From: an uncultured virus (IMG/VR IMGVR_UViG_3300020414_000984)
Taxonomy: Duplodnaviria > Heunggongvirae > Uroviricota > Caudoviricetes > Crassvirales
Virus record (IMG/VR): IMGVR_UViG_3300020414_000984
Length of the DNA: 36,187 bases
Direction: 5' to 3' (one strand)
Shown piece by piece: positions 2,305-34,597 of the stretch. Numbering within the stretch: position 1 is the first letter of the stretch; every line of letters starts with the position of its first letter. The translations under genes and the position numbers were made by a program. The notes under the pieces were generated by a model that saw only the letters and a program-made list of their open reading frames with translations, did not search any database and was not told the DNA's origin.

Positions 2305-2500
2305 TATTGGTAGAGATTATAAAAACGATGCAATGCATTACGCTGTCGGCCAAGAAGTATATGGCGGGCATACCATATGCGATATAATTGAACAAGAAAG
2401 TAAATTTTCTATATTAATTAAAAAAGGTAAAGATGTTTTACCTTGGAAAGATTTTAATAAGAATATGGCGGTTTCTGTTGAATATAATTTAGAATATTAA
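2282..2500 (+). CDS. Hypothetical phage protein (MSLIRKISIG...)
   Basis: ATG at 2282 is in frame with the track ORF; its stop overlaps the next start (TAATG). Confidence 0.7.
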   Translation: MSLIRKISIGRDYKNDAMHYAVGQEVYGGHTICDIIEQESKFSILIKKGKDVLPWKDFNKNMAVSVEYNLEY

Positions 2501-3090
2501 TGCAAAGTTTATTTAACTTTATAGTCGAACCAAAAAATAAAAGATACGATAATACAAAACATATTGATGATAAAGAGCTGATATTAAATTCAGAAATATC
2601 TGATCATCGATATGTTAGTCGTGTCGGTAAAGTACTTAGCGTACCTAAAGCTATCAAAACAAAAATTAATGTAGGTGACGAAGTTATAGTACACCACAAT
2701 GTTTTTCGTAGATGGTACGACATTAGGGGCGTAGAGAAGAATAGCAAAAGCTATTGGAAAGAAAATAAATATTTTGTTGCTACAGACCAAATATTTCTGT
2801 ATAAAAGAAATAATGAATGGCATGCACCAGAAGGTTATTCTTTTATAAAACCAATTATATCAAATAATATATTGCAAAATGAAAAAGAGATTCCATTGCG
2901 TGGAATTATAAAGTATGTTGACCCAAAACTAAAAGATATACAAAAAGAAGATTTAATTGGATTTACACCGGAAAGCGAATATGAATTTGTTGTTGACGGT
3001 GAAAGATTATATAGAGTGCCAAATAATTCAATATCTATTAAGTATGAACGTCAAGGAAACGAAAAAGAATATAATCCAAGCTGGACATAA
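2500..3090 (+). CDS. GroES-like co-chaperonin
   Basis: FIVEP...G.VLSVP....I.VGDEVIVHHNVF pattern resembles the GroES fold, with a second similar half (IKPI...GIIKY...EDLIGF). Confidence 0.65.
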   Translation: MQSLFNFIVEPKNKRYDNTKHIDDKELILNSEISDHRYVSRVGKVLSVPKAIKTKINVGDEVIVHHNVFRRWYDIRGVEKNSKSYWKENKYFVATDQIFLYKRNNEWHAPEGYSFIKPIISNNILQNEKEIPLRGIIKYVDPKLKDIQKEDLIGFTPESEYEFVVDGERLYRVPNNSISIKYERQGNEKEYNPSWT

Positions 3091-3319
3091 AGCAGTTGAA
3101 GAATTAATTAAAGTTGCTAAAGAAAGAATTGTTGATTCAGATGATGATGTTTCAGCAGATAGATTAAAAAACGCGGCTGCTACAAAAAAGCTAGCTATAT
3201 TTGATGCTTTTGAAATACTTAATCGTATTGAAGAAGAAAAAAATATGTTAGAAGATAAACCTAAAGAAGTTAAAAAAGAAAAAACTTTTAGAGGGTTTGC
3301 AGAAGGGAGATCCAAATAA
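3044..3319 (+). CDS. Helical protein upstream of terL, candidate small terminase subunit
   Basis: Likely start is the ATG at 3044 (MNVKETKKNIIQAG); stop overlaps the terL ATG; assignment is positional only. Confidence 0.5.
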   Translation: MNVKETKKNIIQAGHKAVEELIKVAKERIVDSDDDVSADRLKNAAATKKLAIFDAFEILNRIEEEKNMLEDKPKEVKKEKTFRGFAEGRSK

Positions 3320-5535
3320 TGTATAAGCAATCATTATATAGCGTTATAGAGCCTATAAAAATTAATACAATTAAAAGGCTTAATAAAGCAAAAAAGTGGA
3401 AATACGGCTATAATAAAGAGCACGACGTAGTTGTTATAAGCAAGTCCGGTCAGATCGGGGAGGTGTATAGCATACAAAACTTAAAAATAGCTTTACCTAA
3501 ACAAAAAAATATACATAAGTTTGAAGATAACAAATGGAATAGATTTGAATATCCAAAAGCTTTAGAAAAAATAAAAACTGTTTTTGATTTTAAACAGTAC
3601 CCTCAAGATTTTAAAGAAAAATGGTATGATTACATCGATAATGAATTCACTCGTAGAGAAGAAGGTTTTTGGTTTTATAACAAAGGCATTCCTACTTACA
3701 TTAGTGGTACTCATTACATGTACTTGCAGTGGTCTAAAATTGACGTCGGGAATCCCGAATTCAGAGAGTCAAATAGATTATTCTTTATTTTCTGGGAAGC
3801 TTGTAAGGCAGATTCACGATCCTATGGGATGTGTTACCTTAAGAACAGGCGTTCCGGGTTTTCTTTCATGGCCTCAGGAGAGGTGGTTAACTTGGCAACC
3901 ATATCAAGTGACAGTAGGTATGGTATATTATCCAAGTCCGGTCCTGATGCAAAGAAGATGTTCACAGATAAGGTGGTACCCATATCAGTTAATTATCCCT
4001 TCTTTTTCAAGCCGACCCAGGACGGAATGGACCGTCCAAAGACCGAACTTGCCTACCGTGTCCCCGCAACCAAGTACACCCGTCGTAAGCTCACCGCCTC
4101 CGCCGATGAAACCTTACAGGACGAATTACAGGGACTTGATACCACCATCGATTGGAAGAACACCGGTGATAACTCCTACGACGGTGAGAAACTCAAACTC
4201 CTCGTACATGACGAGTCCGGTAAATGGGAGAAGCCGAACAACATCCTCAACAACTGGCGGGTCACCAAGACCACGTTACGATTAGGTAGTAGAATTATTG
4301 GTAAATGTATGATGGGTTCAACTAGTAACTCATTAGATAAAGGTGGTAGAAACTTTAAAAAACTATACGATGACTCAGATGTTACCAAGAGAAACAGCAA
4401 CGGACAGACTCGTTCAGGATTATATAGTTTGTTCATACCTATGGAATGGAACTACGAAGGATACATTGATTCTTATGGATTACCTGTATTCGATACACCG
4501 AAAAAATCGATTAAAGGACCTCAAAATGAGAAAATAAATTTAGGGGTTATTGAATATTGGGAAAATGAAGTTGAAGGATTAAAAGATGATCAAGACGCTT
4601 TAAATGAATTTTACAGACAATTTCCAAGAACAACAAAACATGCTTTTAGAGATGAATCAAAACAATCTTTATTTAATCTAACTAAAATTTATGAACAAAT
4701 AGATTTTAATGAAGATTTAAAAAATTCTATAGAAGTAACAAAAGGTAATTTTCAATGGGAAAATAGTGAAAAAGATACTAAAGTAATATTTGTACCTAAC
4801 AATAATGGTAGGTTTCTTGTTACTTGGGTTCCTCCTGTTTCACTACAAAATAAAAGATTTATTAAAAACGGAGTTAATTATCCTGGTAATGAACATATGG
4901 GAGCTTTTGGATGCGATCCTTATGATATATCAGGAACTGTAGATAAAAGAGGTTCTAATGGATCTTTGCATGGATTAACAAAGTTTAGCATGGAAAATGC
5001 ACCGCCAAATCATTTTTTCTTAGAATATATAGCTAGACCACAAACAGCTGAAATATTTTTTGAAGATGTTTTAATGGCTTGTGTTTTTTACGGTATGCCT
5101 ATATTAGCAGAAAACAATAAACCAAGATTACTATATTATTTTAAACGTAGAGGTTATAGAGGTTTTGCTATGAATAGACCTGATAAACTAAGAAATAAAT
5201 TATCAGTTACTGAAAGAGAAATAGGTGGTATACCAAATTCAAGCGAAGATATAAAACAAGCTCATGCTTCTGCCATAGAAACTTACATAGAACATTTTGT
5301 AGGTTTAAAAGAAACTGGATACGGTGACATGTATTTTCAGAGAACACTAGAAGACTGGGCAAAATTTAACATAAACAATAGAACAACACATGATGCTTCT
5401 ATTAGCTCTGGTCTAGCTTTAATGGCTTGCAATAAACATAGATATAAACCTAATGTTAAAAGAATATTAAAACCAGTAGATTTAGGTATAAAAAAATATA
5501 ATAATAAAGGATCAATGTCAAAAATAATTGAATAG
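3319..5535 (+). CDS. terL: Terminase large subunit
   Basis: 738 aa; Walker A-like YLKNRRSGFS, Walker B LLVHDESGKW, MMGST coupling motif, nuclease acidic motifs FGCDPYD and HDASISSGLA; lies directly before the portal gene. Confidence 0.93.
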   Translation: MYKQSLYSVIEPIKINTIKRLNKAKKWKYGYNKEHDVVVISKSGQIGEVYSIQNLKIALPKQKNIHKFEDNKWNRFEYPKALEKIKTVFDFKQYPQDFKEKWYDYIDNEFTRREEGFWFYNKGIPTYISGTHYMYLQWSKIDVGNPEFRESNRLFFIFWEACKADSRSYGMCYLKNRRSGFSFMASGEVVNLATISSDSRYGILSKSGPDAKKMFTDKVVPISVNYPFFFKPTQDGMDRPKTELAYRVPATKYTRRKLTASADETLQDELQGLDTTIDWKNTGDNSYDGEKLKLLVHDESGKWEKPNNILNNWRVTKTTLRLGSRIIGKCMMGSTSNSLDKGGRNFKKLYDDSDVTKRNSNGQTRSGLYSLFIPMEWNYEGYIDSYGLPVFDTPKKSIKGPQNEKINLGVIEYWENEVEGLKDDQDALNEFYRQFPRTTKHAFRDESKQSLFNLTKIYEQIDFNEDLKNSIEVTKGNFQWENSEKDTKVIFVPNNNGRFLVTWVPPVSLQNKRFIKNGVNYPGNEHMGAFGCDPYDISGTVDKRGSNGSLHGLTKFSMENAPPNHFFLEYIARPQTAEIFFEDVLMACVFYGMPILAENNKPRLLYYFKRRGYRGFAMNRPDKLRNKLSVTEREIGGIPNSSEDIKQAHASAIETYIEHFVGLKETGYGDMYFQRTLEDWAKFNINNRTTHDASISSGLALMACNKHRYKPNVKRILKPVDLGIKKYNNKGSMSKIIE
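3641..4285 (+). CDS. Candidate overprinted ORF in the +1 frame of terL (Pro/Ser/Thr-rich)
   Basis: Stop-free from 3584 to 4285 with ATGs at 3626 and 3641; coincides with a GC-rich island that ends at its TAG. Confidence 0.4.
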   Translation: MNSLVEKKVFGFITKAFLLTLVVLITCTCSGLKLTSGIPNSESQIDYSLFSGKLVRQIHDPMGCVTLRTGVPGFLSWPQERWLTWQPYQVTVGMVYYPSPVLMQRRCSQIRWYPYQLIIPSFSSRPRTEWTVQRPNLPTVSPQPSTPVVSSPPPPMKPYRTNYRDLIPPSIGRTPVITPTTVRNSNSSYMTSPVNGRSRTTSSTTGGSPRPRYD

Positions 5536-18199: not shown

Positions 18200-19690
18200 A
18201 TGGGAGCTATAGTAGAAGTAAAATTCTTTAATAATTTTGTATTAAAAAAGACAATAAATCAATCACAACCTGTGTGGATGGGTTCTTTTGGTATTCCTGC
18301 CGATAAATCAGGTTATCCTTCAATAACAGGATTAACTACACAAGAAGAAAATTGGGCTATAGAAGAAAGTAGAATTAGAGGTGGTTATAATAATACTTCT
18401 ACTGCTTATGGTGCAAAAGCTTATTTAGTTGAAGAAGATCCAAATGGATATATTAGATTTAATTCATTAATATATTCAGGTATATATAATTCAAGAACTG
18501 GTGTAAACGATACTAATGTGTTTTCAACAGGTCAAGATATAACTAAGTCTACCGATCCTGCAAATGGTTCTATACAAAAACTATACGCTGAAGATACTAA
18601 TTTAATAATATTTCAAGAAAATAAAATTAGTAGAGCATTGATAGATAAAGATGCTATATACTCAGCTGAAGGTGGTGGCGCTATAACTAATTCTAATTTA
18701 GTAATAGGAACTATACAGCCTTTTCCAGGTAAATATGGAATTAGTAAAAATCCTGAAAGTTTTGCTGTATATGGTTATAATAAATATTTTTCAGATAAAA
18801 ATAACAATGTTATATTAAAATTGTCTGGAGGTAATATTGCTGAAATCTCAGGTGTAGGTATGAGAGATTATTTTAGAGATGAATTAAATACTCTAGATTT
18901 AGCTGGTACACCAGGATTTATAATAGGTGGTTGGGATTTATATAATAGTCAATATGTTATTTCTACACAACAAGATTCAAGTAAATCTTCAAAACCTAGA
19001 TTTAATACTCTTTCTTGGGACGAGCAAGTTGGTGGTTGGACAAGTTTCTATGATTACAGACCTGATCAAGCTTTTAGTGTTAGAAATAATTTTTATACTA
19101 CAAATGAAGATAATTTATATAAACATTATTCTACAACTTCTCCAAGAGCTCAGTTTTATGGAGTTACAAATCCAGCTAGTGTTACTTTTATTTTTAATCC
19201 AGAACCTACTAGATCAAAATATTTTAAAACTTTAAATTACGAAGGAAGTAATGGTTGGCAAGCTAGTAGCGTTGTATCTGATCCTACTGGACAAGACCAG
19301 TCTGTTTCTTCAACTAGTGTTTATATAAATAATAATGACACAGGTCAAACAATACTTAGCCAATTAGGTGGTGAATATGCTTATGATTCTAATGGAAATG
19401 TAATAACGAGAGCTAATTACAATTTAAATCCACCAAATGGTTTTGGAACAAATAACCCAGCAGTACCTAGATACTATGCTGGTTTTAATAGAAAAGAAAA
19501 TAATTACGCGGCAAACCTAGTAAACGATTCTTCAGCTATGAGAAGCGAAGTTATATTTGGTAATCAAATAAGTGGTTTAAAAGGTTATTATTTAACTGTA
19601 CAAATGAGTACAGACGCAGTAACTAATGTAGGTGCAGAAAAACAACTTTTTTCTGTTGCTACAAATTATTCAAATAACAATGGATATTAA
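18200..19690 (+). CDS. Tail stabilisation-type protein (beta-rich)
   Basis: Motifs GSIQKLYAEDTNLIIFQENK, YGISKNPESFA and GWTSFYDY. Confidence 0.65.
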   Translation: MGAIVEVKFFNNFVLKKTINQSQPVWMGSFGIPADKSGYPSITGLTTQEENWAIEESRIRGGYNNTSTAYGAKAYLVEEDPNGYIRFNSLIYSGIYNSRTGVNDTNVFSTGQDITKSTDPANGSIQKLYAEDTNLIIFQENKISRALIDKDAIYSAEGGGAITNSNLVIGTIQPFPGKYGISKNPESFAVYGYNKYFSDKNNNVILKLSGGNIAEISGVGMRDYFRDELNTLDLAGTPGFIIGGWDLYNSQYVISTQQDSSKSSKPRFNTLSWDEQVGGWTSFYDYRPDQAFSVRNNFYTTNEDNLYKHYSTTSPRAQFYGVTNPASVTFIFNPEPTRSKYFKTLNYEGSNGWQASSVVSDPTGQDQSVSSTSVYINNNDTGQTILSQLGGEYAYDSNGNVITRANYNLNPPNGFGTNNPAVPRYYAGFNRKENNYAANLVNDSSAMRSEVIFGNQISGLKGYYLTVQMSTDAVTNVGAEKQLFSVATNYSNNNGY

Positions 19691-21487: not shown

Positions 21488-24400
21488 ATGACAGAAGAAG
21501 AATTTTTAATGTCTCTACCACAAAGTCTTGATCCAGATGAAAAATTAAAAAGACTTGAGCAATGGAGACAAGAAAATCCTCAACCTGAAGTTGAAGAAGA
21601 AGTAGTTGAAGAAGAAGTATCTGAGCAACAACCTAAAGAAGAAATAATATCTTCTGAAAATGTTAATTTTAGTTTTCCTAGTTCATTTAACAATCAACAA
21701 AAACCAAGTTTATTTTCTTTAGGTTCTGATGGACAGATTGATATAAACTCTTCTATTTTTAACACATCTAATACAGATACTTTAAATTATCAGTTTCAAG
21801 GAACGTCTTTGCCTACTACTAACTTAAATTTAAGTTTAGGTGGTTTGCAAAACAATGTTGAAGCAATGGAGGCTCAACAAAGACTTACTGCTGTAAGTAA
21901 ACCTAATGAAATCATGAATACTTTTGATAAGTCATATGAATATAAATATGATCTTGTTGATGGTAAAATGATTTATTATACTAGAAAAAATGGCACTGAA
22001 GACGAGTGGGATGTAATAGATAATCCAGAAGATAATAGATATTTTGATATTGGAGCTAAAGTTTTTAAACATTTTGATTATGACGAAGAAGCTTATGACC
22101 AAGGACAAAGTATAATAAGACAAGGTAAGAAAGTAGGTAAAAAATACAGTTCTTTTATGGAAGAATCAGAAACTATATTGTTAGATGAAACTTCCACAGA
22201 AGAATTTGTAGATATAGAAAAAATATTTACAGAGCGCGTGCAAATGACTGATGAACAAGAGGAAAATAATGAAGATGCAGCCACTTCATTTGTTGAAAAT
22301 AAACAAAGAGAAAGAGTAGAGGTTAAAGAAGTAACAACTAAAATTGGAAGTGAAGGTGGAAAACCTATATATTCTACACAAAAAGTAAAAGTAAAAACTG
22401 GTGAGATGGAGGATAATCCAGATTACATAGCTGCAAGAGATGAGGCTATAAAACAGTTAAAAAATGAAAAAGGTATACTTGATAAAGATTTTGATTTAAA
22501 CGATCCAGAAATCATGAAAATGGTAGATGCTCGTATTTATCAAAATAAATTACGTGAATTAAACTCTGCAACTACTATTAATAATTTAGAAAATTATATT
22601 GAAGGTTTAGGTACAGATTTTGATCTTGCTGATTATTATGAAGTAGGTGTTGACTTTTTAACTGACGCAAGTCCTATTTTTAATACTTTAAAAGATAAAC
22701 TTTTACCAAAAATAAACGAAGAATTAGGTACTAATCTTGGTGAAAAAACAATACTAGATGTTTTTGATAGAACTGAACTTCAACAACGAATGGAGAAGTT
22801 TATTGATATTAAACAAAGTAATTTAGATAATAAATCAAAAAAGCTAGAAACTTTCATGGCTAGTGGTGAGGATTTATTAAAACAACTTAATCGAGTTGCT
22901 CTTAATATATCAAAAGGTAATTATCAAACACCTAGTCAAGTAGACGAAGCGAATAAAGCTTTAACTAATATTAATAAACAGATAGACGAAACATTAAACC
23001 TTATAAATAAAAAATATGATGAGTTTAGTGATGAGTTAGAAAAAAACCCTGATCTTGCTGGTTTTGCTGATAAGCTAAAAAGAAACTATGGTGCTTTTCC
23101 TTTAATGGTTAATAATTTTAAAGCAGCTGGTACTGAAATGTTTTTAGGTGTAGAAGAAATGGCTTACCAAGTGTACAATTTATATGACGCAGGTGTAGAC
23201 TGGGTAGATGATAATGTGTTTGGTGGTTATAATTTATTTTCATCAACTTTAAATCCAGCAGGAGAATTAGTTTCATTATTTGGTATGGAGAGTGATTTAG
23301 AAGAATGGAGAACAAACAACATAGAGCTTACTGAAAAATGGATACAAGATTCGTTAAGAGGTACTATTGCTGAAGCGAAAAGCGTTAGTGATATAACAGA
23401 TTTTGGTGATTTTGTTACATGGGGTTTTACTAATGTAGGAACTTTAACACCTCAAGTCATGGCTATGACAGTATCTCCTCATACTGGGTTGCTTATTGTA
23501 GGTTCTAGTGCTGGTGGTAATAAATTTAAAGAGCTTACAAAAATAGAAGAACAAAGTGTAGAAGATTATAGAAAATGGAATGATTTAAAACCTACACAAA
23601 GAGATGGTGAAAGCGATGAGTTATTTAAAGAGAGAACACAGAGATGGCAAGATGAAAAACCTGAAATAGTAAACTATACCGCTCTTCAAAAATATGGTGG
23701 TGCTATGATGACCATGGGATTAGAACTAGGTTTAGGTAGAGTTGTTAGTTTACCTTTTGCTAAAGGTAATTCACTAGTGTCTCCTATTTTAAATAGAATA
23801 AAAGTATTACCAGGTGCTCAAAATAAATGGTCTAGGATGTTTGCTAATGGAGTAAGAAAATCAGCAGTAGGTTTTGGAGATGCTCAATTAGAAGGATTTG
23901 AAGAAGGTTTAATAGGTGTAGGAGATAATTGGTATAGAAGATACGTATTAGGTGATACTAGTGTTAATTTATTTGATGGTTTTTGGGATCAATACTCAGC
24001 TGGAGTTATGGGTGGTTATTATTTCAAAGCACCGCATCTTATGACTAGTGTTTTAAATACAGTTCAAACACCAAAAGATGTATCTAATATTACAGGATTA
24101 CAAAATGAAATTAAAAGTATTAATAATACAATACTCAATAATCCTAAAATGTCTGCTAATACTAAAGATATATTAAACGACAATGTTGCAACAAAAATTA
24201 ATCAGATAACAAACAGTATAAATACTTCTTTAAATACATTTACTCAAATGTCTGAAACAGATTTTAATTTGTTAGGAACTATAGATCAACAACTTTTTGA
24301 AATTAATAGTCAAATTGAGCAAATACAAAATGACGATGGCATCGTTGAAGGAAAAGAACAATTAATAGAAGATCTTCAAAACGAAAGAAACAATTTAACA

Positions 24401-27400
24401 GGTCAAAAAAATACAGTATTAGAGGCGTATCAACAAATAGACTCACAACAAGTTACATTAGGTAATGGTCAAATTATTCCTATAGCTACAATAAGAAAAG
24501 GATCTGAAGTAGTTGCAGAGCAACTAGGCGATACTGATATTGTAAGATTTGATACTACACAAGATTTTATTGGTGGTATAGAAACTTTAAGAGCTGAAGG
24601 TGTAGAAGTTGAATTAGCACAAGATACTGAAGGAAATACTTTACCAGCTGATCAACAAAGTTATGGATTAATTGCTACTTTACCAGATGGCACTAAGCAA
24701 GTAATAATCAATAATGCTTCACAAGAAGCAGATGGGGTTATACCTGCTGATAAACATGAAGTATTACATGCTTTTGCAGCTAAGATGGATCCTGAGGTTA
24801 AATTAAAAATGGGACAAGATTTATATAATCTTCTTGTTAATGACACAGGTGATGTTACGAGTAGGGTTGAAATTGACCCTAGAACTAGAGCTTCACTAGA
24901 TACTTATAGAAAAGATTTATTAGAAGGAAAAATAGATGAAGCGCAGTTTTATGAAGAAGTTATGGCTGTTGTTAGTGATGGTTTAACTCAAGGTACTGTA
25001 GATGTTAAAGAAACAGGACCAATAATGAGTCTTGTAAATAAATTTTTAGAAACTATAGGTTTTAAACAAAGTTTTGAAGATGGTAAACAGGTTATAGATT
25101 TCTTAAAAGATTTTAATAAAGATGTATTAAGCGGTAAAGGTTTATCTCAACAAACTTTAGATAAAGCTGGAGTAAATTTAGACCAAGAAGTAGATATGGG
25201 TCTTGAAACAGAAGTTGATTTAGGTGTTGTACAAAGTCAAAAACTACCTGAAGCAACTGAAGTTTACATGGATGTAGATAACAATGCTCTTCAACAAGGT
25301 TTAAACAATGCAATACAAAACCAAACAGATCAACAGTTTCCAATAGCTCAAGCAATTGTAGAAAAAAACTGGCCATTAATAAGTAAATCACTTAATATAA
25401 ATAGTCAGCAAGAAATGGAAGCTGCTAAAGAAGTTGTTATTGATCAAGTATTAGGACAGTTTGAAGGATCTGGTCAAGGTAAATATGGTCCTAGAAACAC
25501 TAGTGCATTAGCTGGTTTTTCGTTGGAAGGTGGAGCACAAGTTAGTACATATTTAGCTGAAACAATAAGAACTAGAAAACCTGAAATTGATGCAGCTATA
25601 GCTGATAGAACTGGTGGTCCAGGTATACAAGCTGACCAAATGGGTGATGTAGCTGTAGAAACCGATGTAACAGAAGTTGCAGAAACTAGACGTACACCTA
25701 GTCAAACAACTACATATTCTGATGCTATATTAGAAAATGTACAAACAGATAAAAATGGTTTAGAAACTAGAATAACTGAGTCAATTCAAGAGTCATATCC
25801 CGGAAGAACAGATGTAACTTTAGCTGAAACTAGAAATATACCTACACAAGTAGCTCAAGTATACGGTGATATGTTTGGTATTAATCCACAAACATTATCA
25901 GATAAAACAAGAAACTTTCAAAAAACAGATGCAGATGGTTTAAACGCTGCAAAACGTTTTTTAATTGATAACGCTCAAGCTGATTTTGCTAATTTACCTG
26001 ATGCGCTAGACGTAGATGGTAAAGGTACATTTATACCTCTTAATGTTAAAAAAGCATTATATACTGACGGTAAAAAAACAGGTACATTAAAAGATTATTT
26101 AGATTTAATTAGAATAAAACCTGAAAAACCTATTTATAGAGACAGAGCTGGTCAAACTATTAGAGGGTTGTTAAATACTCATATTAGAAACAGAATACTA
26201 GAAACATCTAATCCTGATCCTGCTTCAAGAAAACGAAGTGGTGCTAAGTTTAGTAAAAGAGCAAAGGTTAAAAGTACCCAAGTAGATAACCGTACACCAA
26301 ATCAAGTTTTAGCAGATATGGGTAGAGGACCAATGAGAATACAAACAGCAGCTGATGGTAGTTTAGTTGTAGATTCTGGTCCTGTTGAACCTTTAACAAA
26401 GTCGGGAAGAACTTTTCCTAAAGTTAAAGCTTCTAAAAAAATTGATGTTAAAGAGGTAATAAAACTAGAAGAAACAGCGGTAGATCAAACAGTTTCCGAA
26501 ATATCTAAAGCTGAACCTATTCCAACTATAAGCTATCAAAAACTAGAAAAAGATTTAAAGCCTGGAAATATAAAAGATAAAGTATACACAGGTTTAAGAG
26601 ATCAAAGTGCTCCTTATAAAAAAGATAAAAAAGGTAAAACTATAGAAACCTATGAGCAAGCTAGAAATAGAGTAGTAAATGATTTTTTAGATAAACATCC
26701 TAAATGGAAAAGTTTTATTAGAAGAGGAATGGCAGGTGGTATCGAAAACAGTTTATTTCTTAGTACTCAAGAATATAGAAACGCAACAGCAAATGTACCA
26801 GCTAGTGTTCAAACAGATATTTTGCCTTCTAGCATTGGAACTAAAACTTCTGATATACAAGGCTCTAATAAATTAAATCCAAAAGGATTAAAAGATTTTA
26901 ATAAAGATAATGAAGCTTTAAAACCAGAAATATTAATTGAGTTTTGGGGAGATGTAGCAGATTTTTTACAAGATAATAAAAAAGATGCTTGGTTTTTTGG
27001 TGAAATGGTTAATGATTCTAGAAATCACACTGCTGGTCCACTAAGATCAGCTGCTGCTTATTCTTTTTATCCTATAAATCCTAAATCTAAAAAAGCTAAT
27101 TTTGAAGTACCTATTTTAATAGAACATGGTATGCCTAATTTTGCTGCTAACAAACCTCTGTTTGCAGCCGCGATGAAAGGAAGAAATTATGTAAATGCTT
27201 TAAAAGACGTTACTGTTGCTTCGTATGGGCAAGGAGCTATAATGAACGACACTACAACTGATAAATCTAAAAGTGATGATGATTTAGTTAATGTTGATTA
27301 TAAAAATAACATGCCGGCTTGGTTTTATACTAATACAATTCCAGCTATTAAATCAGGTCAATTAAATAATATTATAGATAAATACCCTGGATTAATTGGA

Positions 27401-30400
27401 CCTGTTGCAAGAATGTCGGCATCTGGCGTAAATCAAAATTCTTATGCTAGTCCTGTTGATGGTAAATCTATACCTGAAATATTCGATGTTGAAGTAGATC
27501 CTCAGTTTAGAGACGGCGCAAACGTAGTTGTTGCTCAAAACAAAGCTATAATTAATACCTTAAAAGGTATGACTAAAGCTGACGTGCAAAAACAATTTAA
27601 ACTTGATTTAAAAATAGCTAAAGATAAAGATGTTGCAACAAAAAAATCACTTGTAGATAAAGGTCCTGAAGTATTTGACTCTAACATGACAGTTGAAAAA
27701 ATGAAAACTGTTGCTACAAACTCGTTAAAAACCAAGGTTTTATCTAGTAAAAGAACACCAAAACCAAAAGGTATAAGTGTATTTGATTTTGATGATACAC
27801 TTGCTAAAACAAAAGAAAAGGTTATAGTAAAAACACCTGACGGTAAAACAAAAGAGATAAGTGCTGCTGAATTTGCTAGAGAAGCTGCTAATCTTGTAGA
27901 AGCAGGTGCTGAATTTGATTTTAGTAATTTTGAAAATGTAGCTAGCGACACAGCAGAAGGACCATTAGCAGATCTTGCTAGAAAACGTCAAGGTAAATTT
28001 GGTAGCGGCGATATATTTGTTTTAACTGCAAGACCCGCGACAGCTGCACCAGCTATACAACAATTCTTAAAAAGCATTGGTATTAATATACCTTTAGCTA
28101 ATATTACAGGATTAGGTGATGGATCACCACAAGCTAAGGTTGATTTTGTTTTAAATAAAACCGCTGAAGGTTATAATGATTTTTATTTTGCAGATGATTC
28201 ATTTGCTAATGTCGAAGCTGTTAGTCAAATATTAGATGCTGTTGATGTTAAAAATAGAGTTGAACAAGCTCAAACTAAAGAAGTTAAATTAAATAATGAT
28301 ATAAATCAAATAATTGAAGAAGTTACAGGTGTTGAGTCATTTAAAAAGTATTCTACAGTTAGAGCAAGATTAGAAGGTAAGAAAAAAGATGGAGGTATAT
28401 TTAAACGTATAGGAAAACAACTTACTATTACAGCATCTGCTGAAGATTTTGAAGGATTAACATATGCTTTAAGAGGAAAAGGCGAACAAGGTGATAGACA
28501 CGCTAAATGGATAAATGATAACTTACTTGATCCTTACAATAAAGCAGAGCTAGAATTATTAAGTGCAAAAGTAAATGTTGGTAGAGATTTTGCTGCTTTA
28601 AGAAAAAAGTTTCCAACATTAAAAGGTAGTAAACTTAGCTTTAATAATCCACTATTAAAAGAAATAGATGGTGGACCATTTAATAAAGAACAAGCTGTAA
28701 GAGTTTATTTATGGAATAAGCAAGGTAATGAAATACCTGATATGTCAAAAAGAGATGTTAATCGTTTAGTAAAAGCAGTAGAAGCAGATATTGAACTTCA
28801 AACTTTTGCCGATGAACTAGCATCAATACAAAGAAGTCCTGAATATCCAGCGCCAGGTAAAAATTGGTTAGGTGGAAGTATTAAAAATGATATATTAAAT
28901 GCTATGGACGGATCATTTAGATCTGAGTTAATGGCTGAGTTTAATGAAAATGTAGATATTATATTTAGTCCAGAAAATTTAAATAAGCTTGAGGCTATAT
29001 ATGGAAGCAAATATGTAGAAGCATTAAAAGATTCTATACGTAGAATGAAGTCGGGTAGCAATAGGCCTGTAATTACTGGTAGTGGCGCTAGAGTTGTAAA
29101 TGAAATGCTTGATTGGCTTAATGCTTCTGTTGCTAACGTAATGTTTTTAAATTCAAGATCTGGACTACTTCAAACATTATCAACGGTAAATTTCATAAAT
29201 TGGGGTGATAATAATCTATATGCAGCCGCTAAAGCTTTTGGAAGTAAAGAAATGTGGCCTACATTTATGAAATTAATGAACTCTGATTATTTAATAAACA
29301 GACGTGATGGTTTAAGAATTAATGTAAATGAAGCTGAACTTGCTGACGCTGCTAAAAAAGGTGGTATAAAAGGTGCTTTTAGTTATTTAATGGATAAAGG
29401 TTTTGCTATTACTAGAGTTATGGATAGTTTTGCTATTGCACTTGGTGGTTCTACATTTTTTATTAATCGTAAAAAAGCTTTATTAAATAGAGTTAATCCT
29501 GACACAGGTAAATTATATACTGAAGCAGAAGCTGATGAAAAAGCTTTTCAAGATTTTTATGCAATAGCAGAAGAAACTCAACAGTCGAGTAATCCTGCAA
29601 GAATATCATCTCAACAAGCTAGTATTGCTGGTCGTGTATTGTTATCTTTTCAAAACATAACAATGCAGATGAATAGAAAAACTAAAAAATCTATATTAGA
29701 TCTGTATAACAGACGTAAAAAACCTGGCATGACACAGCGAGAAAGTGATTTAAGTAACATGTCAAGCGTTATTTATTATGTTGGTATGCAAAACTTAATA
29801 TTTAATTCTTTACAACAAGGTTTATTTGCAATGTTGTTTGATGATGAAGAAGAAGAAGATAAAAGAAAACAAGAAAGATTTGCTAATACTTTAAATGGTA
29901 TGACTGATTCTTTATTATTTGGACTTGGTTTTGGTGGAGCAATAATAGCAACAAGTAAAAATATACTTATGCGTATAGCTGATGAGTCAGATAAAAATAA
30001 ACCAGATTATAGAGATATACCTGACGATGTGTTTGATGTAAGTTCGGTTATAGATGCTAAGTTTAGAAAACTTAAATCAGCTGCTAGAACTTTTACTTTT
30101 GAAAGAGACGAAATAAAAAGAAGAGGTTGGAGTATAGATAATCCTGCTTACTTAGCAGTTGCTCAAATTATAGCGGCGTTTACTAACGCACCTGTTGATA
30201 GAGTATTAATGAAGGTGAATAACTTAAGACAAGCTTCTGATGAATCAGTAAGAACTTGGCAAAGAGTTGCTTTAGTACTTGGTTGGAGCGGTTGGCAGTT
30301 TGGTTTACCATATTATGGTAGACAAAGTACTATTGATCGTGAAAATAAAGAAGATGAAAAGATAAAAGAAAACTATGCTAAGCAGGTTAAAGAAGTTAAA

Positions 30401-30535
30401 GCAAAAGGTTTTACTAAAAAAATACCTTTATCAGGACCAAATCATTATAAACCAAAAGGTGAACTAGGAGTTGATTACATGCAAGTAGAAAGACCTGATG
30501 GTACAATACAATATTACGTAAAACATAAAAAATGA
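21488..30535 (+). CDS. Giant (3015 aa) polyvalent internal virion protein with zincin-like and HAD-like domains
   Basis: HEVLH at 24755-24769 with downstream YEEVMA; HAD motifs VFDFDDTL (27785), VLTAR, K and YFADDS; hydrophobic Gly-rich segments. Confidence 0.75.
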   Translation: MTEEEFLMSLPQSLDPDEKLKRLEQWRQENPQPEVEEEVVEEEVSEQQPKEEIISSENVNFSFPSSFNNQQKPSLFSLGSDGQIDINSSIFNTSNTDTLNYQFQGTSLPTTNLNLSLGGLQNNVEAMEAQQRLTAVSKPNEIMNTFDKSYEYKYDLVDGKMIYYTRKNGTEDEWDVIDNPEDNRYFDIGAKVFKHFDYDEEAYDQGQSIIRQGKKVGKKYSSFMEESETILLDETSTEEFVDIEKIFTERVQMTDEQEENNEDAATSFVENKQRERVEVKEVTTKIGSEGGKPIYSTQKVKVKTGEMEDNPDYIAARDEAIKQLKNEKGILDKDFDLNDPEIMKMVDARIYQNKLRELNSATTINNLENYIEGLGTDFDLADYYEVGVDFLTDASPIFNTLKDKLLPKINEELGTNLGEKTILDVFDRTELQQRMEKFIDIKQSNLDNKSKKLETFMASGEDLLKQLNRVALNISKGNYQTPSQVDEANKALTNINKQIDETLNLINKKYDEFSDELEKNPDLAGFADKLKRNYGAFPLMVNNFKAAGTEMFLGVEEMAYQVYNLYDAGVDWVDDNVFGGYNLFSSTLNPAGELVSLFGMESDLEEWRTNNIELTEKWIQDSLRGTIAEAKSVSDITDFGDFVTWGFTNVGTLTPQVMAMTVSPHTGLLIVGSSAGGNKFKELTKIEEQSVEDYRKWNDLKPTQRDGESDELFKERTQRWQDEKPEIVNYTALQKYGGAMMTMGLELGLGRVVSLPFAKGNSLVSPILNRIKVLPGAQNKWSRMFANGVRKSAVGFGDAQLEGFEEGLIGVGDNWYRRYVLGDTSVNLFDGFWDQYSAGVMGGYYFKAPHLMTSVLNTVQTPKDVSNITGLQNEIKSINNTILNNPKMSANTKDILNDNVATKINQITNSINTSLNTFTQMSETDFNLLGTIDQQLFEINSQIEQIQNDDGIVEGKEQLIEDLQNERNNLTGQKNTVLEAYQQIDSQQVTLGNGQIIPIATIRKGSEVVAEQLGDTDIVRFDTTQDFIGGIETLRAEGVEVELAQDTEGNTLPADQQSYGLIATLPDGTKQVIINNASQEADGVIPADKHEVLHAFAAKMDPEVKLKMGQDLYNLLVNDTGDVTSRVEIDPRTRASLDTYRKDLLEGKIDEAQFYEEVMAVVSDGLTQGTVDVKETGPIMSLVNKFLETIGFKQSFEDGKQVIDFLKDFNKDVLSGKGLSQQTLDKAGVNLDQEVDMGLETEVDLGVVQSQKLPEATEVYMDVDNNALQQGLNNAIQNQTDQQFPIAQAIVEKNWPLISKSLNINSQQEMEAAKEVVIDQVLGQFEGSGQGKYGPRNTSALAGFSLEGGAQVSTYLAETIRTRKPEIDAAIADRTGGPGIQADQMGDVAVETDVTEVAETRRTPSQTTTYSDAILENVQTDKNGLETRITESIQESYPGRTDVTLAETRNIPTQVAQVYGDMFGINPQTLSDKTRNFQKTDADGLNAAKRFLIDNAQADFANLPDALDVDGKGTFIPLNVKKALYTDGKKTGTLKDYLDLIRIKPEKPIYRDRAGQTIRGLLNTHIRNRILETSNPDPASRKRSGAKFSKRAKVKSTQVDNRTPNQVLADMGRGPMRIQTAADGSLVVDSGPVEPLTKSGRTFPKVKASKKIDVKEVIKLEETAVDQTVSEISKAEPIPTISYQKLEKDLKPGNIKDKVYTGLRDQSAPYKKDKKGKTIETYEQARNRVVNDFLDKHPKWKSFIRRGMAGGIENSLFLSTQEYRNATANVPASVQTDILPSSIGTKTSDIQGSNKLNPKGLKDFNKDNEALKPEILIEFWGDVADFLQDNKKDAWFFGEMVNDSRNHTAGPLRSAAAYSFYPINPKSKKANFEVPILIEHGMPNFAANKPLFAAAMKGRNYVNALKDVTVASYGQGAIMNDTTTDKSKSDDDLVNVDYKNNMPAWFYTNTIPAIKSGQLNNIIDKYPGLIGPVARMSASGVNQNSYASPVDGKSIPEIFDVEVDPQFRDGANVVVAQNKAIINTLKGMTKADVQKQFKLDLKIAKDKDVATKKSLVDKGPEVFDSNMTVEKMKTVATNSLKTKVLSSKRTPKPKGISVFDFDDTLAKTKEKVIVKTPDGKTKEISAAEFAREAANLVEAGAEFDFSNFENVASDTAEGPLADLARKRQGKFGSGDIFVLTARPATAAPAIQQFLKSIGINIPLANITGLGDGSPQAKVDFVLNKTAEGYNDFYFADDSFANVEAVSQILDAVDVKNRVEQAQTKEVKLNNDINQIIEEVTGVESFKKYSTVRARLEGKKKDGGIFKRIGKQLTITASAEDFEGLTYALRGKGEQGDRHAKWINDNLLDPYNKAELELLSAKVNVGRDFAALRKKFPTLKGSKLSFNNPLLKEIDGGPFNKEQAVRVYLWNKQGNEIPDMSKRDVNRLVKAVEADIELQTFADELASIQRSPEYPAPGKNWLGGSIKNDILNAMDGSFRSELMAEFNENVDIIFSPENLNKLEAIYGSKYVEALKDSIRRMKSGSNRPVITGSGARVVNEMLDWLNASVANVMFLNSRSGLLQTLSTVNFINWGDNNLYAAAKAFGSKEMWPTFMKLMNSDYLINRRDGLRINVNEAELADAAKKGGIKGAFSYLMDKGFAITRVMDSFAIALGGSTFFINRKKALLNRVNPDTGKLYTEAEADEKAFQDFYAIAEETQQSSNPARISSQQASIAGRVLLSFQNITMQMNRKTKKSILDLYNRRKKPGMTQRESDLSNMSSVIYYVGMQNLIFNSLQQGLFAMLFDDEEEEDKRKQERFANTLNGMTDSLLFGLGFGGAIIATSKNILMRIADESDKNKPDYRDIPDDVFDVSSVIDAKFRKLKSAARTFTFERDEIKRRGWSIDNPAYLAVAQIIAAFTNAPVDRVLMKVNNLRQASDESVRTWQRVALVLGWSGWQFGLPYYGRQSTIDRENKEDEKIKENYAKQVKEVKAKGFTKKIPLSGPNHYKPKGELGVDYMQVERPDGTIQYYVKHKK

Positions 30536-31813: not shown

Positions 31814-32101
31814 ATGGCACAGAAGATAGGTGAAGAAACACAGGTAACGCTTGATCTTAAAACAATAGGCATGATAGTAGGTTTTGTAATTATGTTAGCT
31901 GGTATGTGGTTTACATTACAAGCAGATATAGCTCAAGCTAAAGAATTACCTGCACCAGTTATTGATAGAGTAGAATATGATTTAAAAGACGAGTTGATAC
32001 GTCAAACCATCATGGATACGCAAGAAGATGTTGAAGAGATAAAAGAAACTATTGATAAGATTGACGAAAGACTGTACGAGATACAAAAAAACGGAAGATG
32101 A
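31814..32101 (+). CDS. Single-TM membrane protein with a C-terminal coiled coil
   Basis: IGMIVGFVIMLAGMWFTL transmembrane segment, then DVEEIKETIDKIDERLYEI heptads. Confidence 0.7.
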   Translation: MAQKIGEETQVTLDLKTIGMIVGFVIMLAGMWFTLQADIAQAKELPAPVIDRVEYDLKDELIRQTIMDTQEDVEEIKETIDKIDERLYEIQKNGR

Positions 32102-32496
32102 AATACTTAAATATAATTTTATTATTATTATCATTTAATGTATCTGCTCAAGAGTGGATAACAGATGATAACTTTGATAATAAAATAAATGAAAAACAAG
32201 CTTTTGGTGATGATCAAAGTAAACCTGTTATTGTAGAGTTTTACGCTAAGTTTAACGATGCTAATAAGTTTGATCAATGGTCTGAACTAAAAGATGTTAT
32301 ATATTATAGAGCAGATATAGCCGTATGTCCAGCTGCTAAGAAAAAATATAAAGTACGTATGGCACCAACACTTATTATATTTAAAGATGGTATAAAAGAA
32401 ACTGTTTTTAAAGCTGGTTTAGATTTAACACTACCAGCAGATCTAAGTGATATACAAGAAGCAATAAATGAAGTTAATAATGCAAGTAAATTTTAA
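32098..32496 (+). CDS. Secreted thioredoxin-fold protein lacking CxxC
   Basis: Signal peptide (VSA-Q); ITDDNFD...PVIVEFYAKFN in place of WCxxC; cis-Pro loop MAPTLIIFKDG. Confidence 0.7.
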   Translation: MKYLNIILLLLSFNVSAQEWITDDNFDNKINEKQAFGDDQSKPVIVEFYAKFNDANKFDQWSELKDVIYYRADIAVCPAAKKKYKVRMAPTLIIFKDGIKETVFKAGLDLTLPADLSDIQEAINEVNNASKF

Positions 32497-33885: not shown

Positions 33886-34152
33886 ATGTACACATCACCA
33901 TTTTTTAAACGTATGGGTGAGTTTAAACATTCTGACGCACCTGATGCTAAAGGTAAATTCAATGATCTATCTGCAAGTGAATTAGCTAGTTGGTTAATTA
34001 AAACTAGAAAAGGTAATTTAAAAAAGATTATTGGAAGTTTAAATCAACAAGTTGTATTCAATAGAAAGAAAAGACCTAGCTATGCTAAGAAGATGAAAAC
34101 AACTATGAACATTGTAAGAAAAAGATTAAAGAAAGATGAAGATAAGTCATAA
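33886..34152 (+). CDS. Basic hypothetical protein (MYTSPFFKR...HSDAPDAKG)
   Basis: ATG at 33886 lies just after the upstream stop. Confidence 0.65.
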   Translation: MYTSPFFKRMGEFKHSDAPDAKGKFNDLSASELASWLIKTRKGNLKKIIGSLNQQVVFNRKKRPSYAKKMKTTMNIVRKRLKKDEDKS

Positions 34153-34597
34153 CATAAGCTATGCAGAAGCAATACATTCTAACACTGCTAAAAGAAAAGG
34201 TATAGATAATACACCTAATCCAACGCAGGTAGAAAATATGAAAGTTACTGCAGAAAAAATATTTCAACCACTACGTGAGTGGGTTGGTGGACCAATAAAA
34301 GTTAATTCGTTTTTTAGATCACCAGAACTTAATGAAGCAATCGGCGGAAGTAAAACCAGTCAACATTGTAAAGGTCAAGCAATTGATATTGACGATGTAT
34401 ATGGTTACAAAACAAACGCAGAAATGTATCATTGGGTAAAAGAAAATTTAAATTTTGATCAAATGATATGGGAGTTTGGAACAGATATGAATCCTAACTG
34501 GGTACATATATCATACGTGTCAGAAGAAGATAATAGAAACAGATGTCTAAAAGCCTATAAAGATGATATGGGTAGAACTAAATACAAAGTAATATGA
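34136..34597 (+). CDS. Peptidase M15A-family endolysin
   Basis: SFFRSPELNEAIGGSKTSQHCKGQAIDI (R, SxH-x6-D) and WVHISY zinc-ligand motifs. Confidence 0.88.
   Translation: MKISHNISYAEAIHSNTAKRKGIDNTPNPTQVENMKVTAEKIFQPLREWVGGPIKVNSFFRSPELNEAIGGSKTSQHCKGQAIDIDDVYGYKTNAEMYHWVKENLNFDQMIWEFGTDMNPNWVHISYVSEEDNRNRCLKAYKDDMGRTKYKVI

Follow-up and report, generated by a model that had tools for sequence, protein, structure and literature searches.

Why does codon usage in one part of a phage gene change at the very position where another reading frame ends? The large terminase gene (terL) of an uncultured tailed virus of the Crassvirales raises this question. We analyzed a 36,187-nucleotide (nt) stretch of its DNA (IMG/VR record IMGVR_UViG_3300020414_000984; hereafter, the window), in which an earlier sequence-only reading had noticed a GC-rich island inside terL that ends at the stop codon of a long open reading frame (ORF) in the +1 frame, and had proposed that this ORF is a gene. 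Context-specific codon choice in two clades of relatives, a conserved ATG, and GC content that changes class by class among the relatives support this proposal. Judging from these comparisons, the ORF at positions 3626-4285 is probably an overprinted gene, i.e., a +1 frame that is translated and maintained by selection, with the GC-rich island as its footprint.

The GC-rich island and the open +1 frame of terL

In the window, terL occupies positions 3319-5535 of the + strand (738 codons, which define frame 0). When GC content was calculated for 240-nt segments across the whole window, the mean was 32.2%, with a standard deviation of 4.1%, and the maximum, 53.75%, was reached at 3997. Values above 45% were obtained only for segments starting at 3791-4100, which makes this region the sole compositional outlier of the window. 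The counts made by hand in the sequence-only reading, 128/240 (53.3%) at 4021-4260 and 17/60 (28.3%) at 4561-4620, proved exact. The rise is limited to the third codon positions of terL; relatives that have the island and those that do not show no difference in GC content at first and second positions. GC content at third positions (GC3) is 0.45-0.85 in codons 121-320 versus 0.15 in codons 321-340, confirming that the island ends at the stop codon of the +1 ORF. At the level of GC3, the island covers positions 3679-4281 (+ strand; terL codons ~121-321), climbs toward its 3′ end, and falls at codon 321. A sharp 3′ edge at codon 321 is common among relatives, and the 5′ rise near codon 121 is gradual.

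An ORF listing of the window calls the +1 ORF at 3584-4285, with 233 amino acids (aa) from a TTG codon. Counted from stop to stop, the open run comprises 236 codons, from position 3575 (after the TAA at 3572-3574) to the TAG at 4283-4285 (+ strand), just past which GC3 is at background. It is the longest of 2812 same-strand out-of-frame runs found in 27 large genes, for which the 99th percentile is 38 codons, so the earlier statement that the frame is stop-free for 233 codons, far longer than other shadow ORFs, holds. The next-longest run, of 102 codons (18927-19232), is located in the +1 frame of a virion structural gene at 18200-19690. As delimited by the open frame, by relatives, and by stop avoidance, the embedded ORF extends over 3626-4285 (+ strand) and consists of 219 codons and the TAG. 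The second position of its codons is the third position of terL codons.

Relatives were obtained by scanning IMG/VR with the terL protein, and the best 80 of more than 607 matches (76-100% aa identity), picked by terL similarity alone, were codon-aligned. GC3 in codons 231-320 was at least 0.45 in 47 of the 80 relatives and below 0.31 in 32. The +1 frame is open in 60 relatives, 36 of them over the full length. In class I (36 relatives, plus the window), it is open from about codon 86-97 to codon 320/322; since 6 of these 36 loci are partial, alignment-based class I counts use 31 sequences, with the partial ones left out. Class II (10 relatives) is open up to codon 291, and class III (14 relatives) is mostly open up to codon 257, with a few members reaching 269 or 291. 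Class IV (20 relatives, plus the outgroup MW202828) carries stops at codons 106, 128, 141/143, 174, 190/192, 219, 244, 258, and beyond. Counted from the conserved ATG, the ORF is 209-220 aa long in class I, 186 aa in class II, and 155 aa in class III.

The GC3 profiles follow these classes. For codons 103-140, 141-200, 201-257, 258-291, 292-319, and 323-360, GC3 is 0.39, 0.43, 0.52, 0.63, 0.72, and 0.25 in class I; 0.43, 0.42, 0.51, 0.69, 0.28, and 0.26 in class II; 0.36, 0.35, 0.35, 0.21, 0.22, and 0.29 in class III; and 0.22, 0.19, 0.19, 0.17, 0.20, and 0.22 in class IV. The composition shift is therefore co-extensive with the ORF: GC3 is raised only inside the ORF of each class and drops past its stop.

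These profiles bear on whether the C-ending codons reflect selection on terL itself, for translational accuracy or speed in its most conserved catalytic part. AT-rich bacteria often prefer C-ending two-fold codons, and the overlap is indeed the most conserved part of terL, its aa identity to the window being 0.82-1.00 versus 0.75-1.00 downstream. It also holds KNRRSGFS (3841-3864, + strand) and LLVHDE (4198-4215, + strand), located in the terL sequence, which we take to be Walker-A-like and Walker-B-like motifs, respectively, by analogy with terminase ATPases. However, 20 relatives encode the same segment at a GC3 of 0.17-0.22, and the GC3 boundary follows the +1 stop (codon 257, 291, or 320) and no feature of terL. 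We consider this explanation very improbable.

The compositional uniqueness of the island within the window could also be due to an element acting at the DNA or RNA level, such as a pac or packaging-initiation site, a structured RNA, or a regulatory site; some headful phages have pac sites within their terminase genes. Alternatives of this kind, raised in the sequence-only reading, fared poorly. Predicted folding is no better than that of dinucleotide shuffles (z = -0.16 for 3990-4289 and z = -0.99 for 3690-3989), no Rfam match was obtained over the island at E<=1, and the only repeats are one weak 19-nt direct repeat and two weak inverted ones. In addition, the nucleotide sequence is unconserved, with third positions varying freely, a quarter of the relatives have no island, and a nucleic acid element has no reading phase. 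We regard such an element as extremely improbable.

Avoidance of stop codons in the +1 frame

High GC content by itself lowers the frequency of stops, as was pointed out when the island was first noticed. This caveat is partly right, but shuffled sequences still contain +1 stops, of which the window has none: for the island, 4-8 stops are predicted when synonymous codons are shuffled in coarse blocks. When synonymous codons were shuffled within three blocks, 3.3-10 stops were expected in the +1 frame versus 0-5 observed, with P <= 0.017 in all 41 island sequences. With 40-codon blocks, used for 17 of the 37 class I sequences, 0.8-4.2 stops were expected versus 0-1 observed (P from 0.000 to 0.26). 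In the controls (the +2 frame, terL codons 340-735, and 17 class IV sequences), observed stops were near the expectation; the +2 frame retains 13-27 stops, at or above the shuffle expectation.

The way in which stops are avoided can be seen from the Leu, Ile, and Val codons of terL, whose third base forms a +1 stop or not depending on the base that follows. In codons 104-319 of the 31 class I sequences, 258 such codons stand before A, and of these only one ends in A and none in G. Before G, A-ending codons are absent (0/321), while 78 codons end in G, which gives the harmless TGG. Thus, a single A-ending codon is found among 579 before any purine. In contrast, before C or T, where no stop can arise, 231 of 446 codons end in A, and in class IV (18 sequences), A-ending codons are common before purines as well (189/345). 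Selection on terL itself predicts neither the purine-context avoidance of A- and G-ending Leu, Ile, and Val codons nor the retention of A-ending codons before pyrimidines.

Since the sequences are related, we also counted substitution events by Fitch parsimony on a FastTree topology, using only columns that are invariantly Leu, Ile, or Val. In class I, just 1 of 56 third-base events made a stop in purine-context columns, whereas pyrimidine-context columns had 16 changes to A among 36 events (Fisher P = 3e-7). Purine-context columns of class IV acquired stops in 13 of 32 events (P = 3e-6). The avoidance of +1 stops is thus phase-specific, context-specific, and ongoing. Because it is tied to one phase, it points to reading of the +1 frame by ribosomes, the only explanation of a phase. 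The +1 frame is thereby shown to be kept open by selection.

An independent replicate is provided by a second clade of relatives (clade 2; L082-L095), to which an ORF homologue (P0078) that is 37% identical to the window ORF led us. The scan for this clade was seeded with the ORF; it is biased toward ORF carriers and unusable for frequencies. Compared to the window, clade 2 has terL proteins with 63-71% identity, a different third base in 50-58% of synonymous codons, and ORF products with an identity of only 26-35%. An open +1 frame of 238-240 codons extends from about codon 89 to codon 326, and GC3 is 0.41-0.65 within the ORF versus 0.09-0.20 in the flanks. In the eight full-length members, stop-making endings of Leu, Ile, and Val codons (A before A or G, G before A) are absent from 136 purine contexts, while 58 of 119 codons before pyrimidines end in A; in terL codons 340-735, A-ending codons before purines amount to 193/333. 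Since the frame is open despite saturated synonymous sites, it must have stayed open through saturation.

Could the segment be a mosaic, i.e., a GC-richer allele of the ATPase core that spread by homologous recombination among AT-rich phages, with the open +1 frame as a passive by-product? Apart from the effect of high GC on stop frequency, several observations agree with a recombined segment, which had been listed early on as an alternative. The ORF classes are interleaved both in the tree of terL codons 330-737 and in the amino acid tree of the overlap. In the window’s own allele group, the overlap is less diverged than the flanks, as recent spread of an allele would predict: the window differs from relatives L003 and L010 at 0.12-0.14 of third positions in the overlap versus 0.24-0.34 in the flanks. 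Moreover, AT-type alleles are found in the same samples, where contigs match the window only downstream of about position 4276. On its own, however, recombination does not explain phase-specific stop avoidance, given the 13-27 stops of the +2 frame, nor ongoing substitutions that shun stops. Codon usage of the segment is not uniformly GC-rich, for Leu, Ile, and Val codons before pyrimidines are still A-ending (231/446), as elsewhere in the genome. A GC-rich donor was not seen, and the relatives with the highest uniform GC3 (L001, 0.42; L017 and L018, 0.3-0.38) have scattered stops, whereas island alleles that differ at 40-58% of third positions retain both high GC3 and an open frame. We therefore judge it unlikely that the open frame is such a by-product.

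Start, predicted product, and origin of the embedded ORF

The proposed start codon of the embedded ORF is an ATG at 3626-3628 (+ strand), formed by the Tyr TAT and Asp GAT codons of terL. It is present in all 31 class I and all 10 class II sequences, in 10 of 13 class III and in 11 of 21 class IV sequences, and hence in 51 of the 54 ORF-bearing sequences with data. In relatives without it, the site equivalent to 3641 is an ATG or GTG, or else a Met codon is found further upstream. The sequence-only reading started the ORF at the second in-frame ATG, at 3641-3643 (+ strand). Its translation from there is as written, but this codon is unconserved in class I, although it is the sole start in some relatives; the conserved ATG is that at 3626. 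At the other end, the +1 frame has a stop at codon 322 in almost all relatives, and many also stop at codon 320.

Alternatively, the +1 frame could be entered by programmed ribosomal frameshifting from the terL frame near codons 97-105, which would fuse the N-terminal ~100 residues of terL to the +1 polypeptide. Upstream +1 stops at codons 82, 85, or 96 leave a short stretch before the hydrophobic segment described below, and this stretch contains an A-rich run, TTT AAA GAA AAA TGG, conserved in all classes. A C-terminal extension of this kind would also account for a frame that is selected to be open but shows little conservation of its sequence. Yet ORF-less relatives conserve the run equally well, because the residues DFKEKW are needed by terL, and we know of no +1 slippery motif that it matches. 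In addition, an ATG (GTG or TTG in L100, L106, and L096) is always found just upstream of the hydrophobic segment and shifts when the stops shift. Chimeras of frame 0 and +1 found in databases switch frames at scattered positions, as indel errors would. Frameshifting is thus quite unlikely, and independent translation of the proposed gene from its own ATG is preferred.

A homology search with the embedded ORF returned 87 database homologues, every one of them the same embedded frame, and no free-standing homologue was present among the 87 matches. The longer matches (among them P0022, P0045, P0057, P0071, P0073, P0082, P0083, and P0085) are terL frame-0/+1 chimeras with scattered switch points, most likely assembly indels that gene callers read through since the +1 frame is open.

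The product is predicted to have an N-terminal hydrophobic segment (residues 14-31; 3665-3718, + strand, by AlphaFold2 and Kyte-Doolittle analysis), which is followed by CTCSG (3719-3733). The Kyte-Doolittle peak is 1.5-1.9 at ORF residues 13-43. AlphaFold2, run with 31 aligned ORFs, models one N-terminal helix (residues 2-34) with a predicted local distance difference test score (pLDDT) of 50-72, while the rest is below 50 and the mean is 41.7. Right after the helix, C32, T33, C34, S35, and G36 are invariant in class I sequences (set A1); in clade 2, the hydrophobic stretch ends in I/T-G-S-C. Near the C terminus, the motif TTSSTTGG (4238-4261, + strand) is conserved in both clades; in A1, T206, S208, and G211 are invariant and S207, T209, and T210 nearly so. 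This motif requires the C-ending terL codons Asn AAC, Ile ATC, and Leu CTC, and the third base of codons 309-312 is C in 46-49 of 49 ORF-bearing sequences versus mostly A or T in ORF-less ones.

The composition of class I ORFs (Pro 8.5%, Ser 10.7%, Thr 11.4%, Arg 8.2%, Gly 6.2%, and Ile 5.3%) differs from that of the same frame in class IV, which is rich in Ile, Leu, and Lys (Pro 0.8%, Ser 2.9%, Arg 2.3%, Ile 10.0%, and stops 5.3%). The window ORF product is basic, with 23 Lys and Arg versus 8 Asp and Glu residues, and contains 27 Pro (12%), including a PPPP run. In experimentally proven viral overlapping genes, according to PMC6195259, C, CG/CC, Arg, Ser, and Pro are overrepresented and A, T, Ile, and Tyr underrepresented; class I ORFs show the bias described there.

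Several results weigh against an embedded gene. The sequence-only reading had suggested looking for suppressed synonymous variation in terL, and there is none: in class I, the median third-position difference is 0.40 in the overlap versus 0.33 downstream, and synonymous diversity is 0.46-0.54 in codons 166-300 versus about 0.35 elsewhere. Conservation of the ORF protein is poor, with identities to the window of 44-91% in class I and 26-35% for clade 2. Among the 227 columns at degenerate terL codons, just 13 have an ORF residue that is at least 90% conserved, several of them being mere stop-avoidance sites. The product has no Pfam or PHROG match, all 87 homologues are the same embedded ORF, and the mean pLDDT of 41.7 means that nothing is folded except one helix. 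The per-sequence shuffle is weak with 40-codon blocks, for which at most 4.2 stops are expected and P reaches 0.26, and since the sequences are related, raw counts of the context table are not independent, which the event count corrects only approximately. The clade 2 scan, seeded with the ORF, favors carriers. As for expression, the ORF-containing stretch is present in marine metagenomes of several studies, with parts in six RNA-library runs, of which X15 and X16 have contigs covering most bins; being contigs, they cannot show transcription, strand, frame, or ends.

Since 20 of the 80 relatives have no ORF and 24 have a shortened one, the ORF is also dispensable. Scattered +1 stops and AT-rich codons in close relatives were named early on as observations that would speak against a gene, and those 20 relatives have both; nevertheless, the polymorphism is structured and leaves the proposed gene unrefuted in the carrier lineages. 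The product may be merely tolerated and not useful. Tolerance is disfavored because it leaves unexplained the continued avoidance of stops and a GC3 of 0.6-0.7 that persists against a genome-wide drive to ~0.15-0.2.

Low synonymous diversity (0.20-0.23) was seen in a different part of terL, at codons ~361-390 (4399-4488), in ORF-bearing and ORF-less relatives alike, and GC3 of codons 371-380 is ~0.6 in both groups. It represents a constraint common to all relatives and is unrelated to the embedded ORF.

We propose the following explanation. A 219-codon ORF lying across the terL ATPase core would be translated independently from the conserved ATG. Selection on it would work through synonymous sites of terL alone, since these are the second positions of its own codons. 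NTA and NTG codons before purines would be barred where they would make TAA, TAG, or TGA in the +1 frame. Preference for C- and G-ending codons would turn a hydrophobic junk frame rich in Lys, Ile, and Leu into a basic, disordered polypeptide rich in Pro, Ser, Thr, Arg, and Gly, which would form a tail behind the N-terminal hydrophobic helix. Where the ORF ends, this selection would end too, so that past the stop codons return to the AT-rich usage of the genome. We infer that the ORF is translated, that its product is membrane-anchored or exported, and that it originated de novo within this phage group. That the product acts at the envelope, in lysis or superinfection exclusion, is a guess to which we give little weight.

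Regarding its history, the closest cultured relatives are phages of marine Flavobacteriia (Flavobacterium phage elemo and phages of Cellulophaga and Maribacter), which show only 33-40% identity in the segment considered here. Neither an island nor a long +1 run was found in an outside group of five terL genes (Flavobacterium phage elemoE, Cellulophaga phi19:3 and phi38:1, Maribacter Panino, and uncultured MW202828), in which the longest +1 runs are 40-88 codons. The gene therefore looks derived within an uncultured marine phage group. The interleaving of ORF classes, together with the lower divergence of the overlap from L003 and L010, suggests that alleles of the segment were probably exchanged among phage backbones. 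In runs X1, X15, and X16, contigs that are AT-rich upstream match the window only from ~4276 on (5, 3, and 11 loose ends, respectively); such contigs indicate that AT-type and GC-type alleles co-occur in the same samples. Their similarity to the window resumes at the 3′ edge of the island. Post-stop segments of classes II and III differ from class IV by a minimum of 0.26 and a median of 0.34, no closer than AT-rich segments among themselves, and are uninformative about recent recombination with class IV donors.

The nucleotide tree of the overlap is nested in the order IV, III, II, I, which may reflect stepwise extension or compositional attraction. A tentative scenario, on balance doubtful, is a series, preserved in the present-day phage population, of stepwise de novo gene birth within the catalytic core of an essential enzyme (no ORF, 155, 186, and ~218 aa, and 238 aa in clade 2), in which each extension would recode terL toward C and G and the product, a membrane-anchored disordered basic tail acting at the envelope in lysis or superinfection exclusion, would sweep between backbones by recombination.

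Genomic setting, known overlapping genes, and significance

The window corresponds to the late, structural module of an AT-rich tailed phage (32.2% GC). A PHROG profile search revealed a GroES-like gene, terL, a portal gene, virion proteins, a 3015-aa ORF, and an endolysin. terL matches phrog_6681, “terminase large subunit,” over residues 26-736 (E = 8.7e-163), and the portal gene (phrog_6547) is directly next to it; it is by this near-full-length profile match and the adjoining portal gene that we call it a large terminase. No Pfam match was obtained for terL at E<=0.01. The GroES-like co-chaperonin gene is located upstream of terL, at 2500-3090, and the order GroES-like, terL, portal is also annotated in Flavobacterium phage elemoE, Cellulophaga phi19:3, and Maribacter Panino. 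The 3015-aa ORF (21488-30535) has no PHROG match at E<=0.001. A 132-aa ORF at 32098-32496, before the endolysin, has an apparent N-terminal secretion signal (MKYLNIILLLLSFNVSAQE...). No obvious holin- or spanin-like gene was seen beside the endolysin (34136-34597), nor was an i-spanin-like gene, with a transmembrane domain and coiled coil, seen there.

The sequence-only reading compared the product to a lipoprotein such as lambda Rz1. The resemblance is partial. Like Rz1 within Rz, the window ORF lies entirely inside another late gene, in the +1 frame, and the phage likewise has a Gram-negative host. The ORF product has an N-terminal hydrophobic segment followed by a Cys and, as described for Rz1 in PMC6139136, is Pro-rich and predicted to be unstructured. 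However, the host gene is terL and not an i-spanin gene, the locus is outside the endolysin region, and at 219 aa the product is about five times longer than mature Rz1 (40 aa, same source). The lipobox consensus given there, [LVI][ASTVI][GAS]C, is absent from all 31 class I ORFs (LITC, LIIC, LTIC, etc.) and from all 9 clade 2 ORFs (IGSC and TGSC), so a strict lipoprotein signal, another point against the proposed gene, was not found. The window ORF also shares no sequence family with Rz1 and is not a member of the o-spanin family as defined. Clade 2 would presumably fit a looser, PROSITE-style pattern.

The nearest known case of terminase-embedded ORFs is that of T7 (NC_001604), in which the hypothetical ORFs 19.2 (38016-38273) and 19.3 (38553-38726) are likewise in the +1 frame of the large terminase gene 19 (37370-39130; in our set, L161, positions 2017-2274 and 2554-2727). 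They are much shorter, 85 and 57 aa, and open +1 runs in gene 19 reach 95 codons at most. Unlike in the window, GC3 of T7 terL is uniformly 0.4-0.65, without an island. Kinship with the window ORF was considered and rejected, as BLASTP detected no similarity (E = 0.38 and 0.12). We know of no evidence for function or conservation of 19.2 or 19.3.

Long same-strand overlapping genes are textbook examples in tiny viruses and are rare and short in tailed double-stranded DNA phages. The product of phiX174 E, a gene embedded in D, also has an N-terminal membrane helix. Like E and the small-virus genes in the set of Pavesi et al. 2018, the window ORF occupies an alternative frame of an older, structured gene. 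It also shares features of proven overprinted genes described in PMC6195259, namely, a disorder-prone product and a composition with more C, Arg, Ser, and Pro and less A/T, Ile, and Tyr. Unlike the small-virus cases, the ORF is found in a tailed double-stranded DNA phage of roughly 60 kb, where space is not limiting, and is polymorphic in presence and length within one phage group. Its composition shift is extreme against a background of 32% GC, and synonymous variation over it is not suppressed. Text searches on overlapping genes and terminase turned up no description of a gene lying within a terminase gene, nor did a search on spanins and lipoproteins of flavobacterial phages yield a terL-embedded gene. 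What is new is the host gene, the length, the polymorphism, and a selection signature without a drop in synonymous rate.

The finding, if the ORF is the gene that we think probable, is that of 219 codons written across the presumed Walker motifs of terL, with an unusually clean evolutionary signature, in which selection is visible only as phase-specific stop avoidance and a shift in composition. Because the synonymous rate is not suppressed, genes of this kind would be missed by standard detectors such as Synplot2 and FRESCo, even though the embedded ORF and frame-0/+1 chimeras, in 87 database clusters, are already among the output of gene callers. Phylogenies based on terL, which is a standard marker for phages, are likewise distorted by the island at the nucleotide level, where sequences group by GC3 class; in the amino acid tree, they do not. 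Finally, polymorphism in presence and length provides natural controls and possibly a time series of overprinting.

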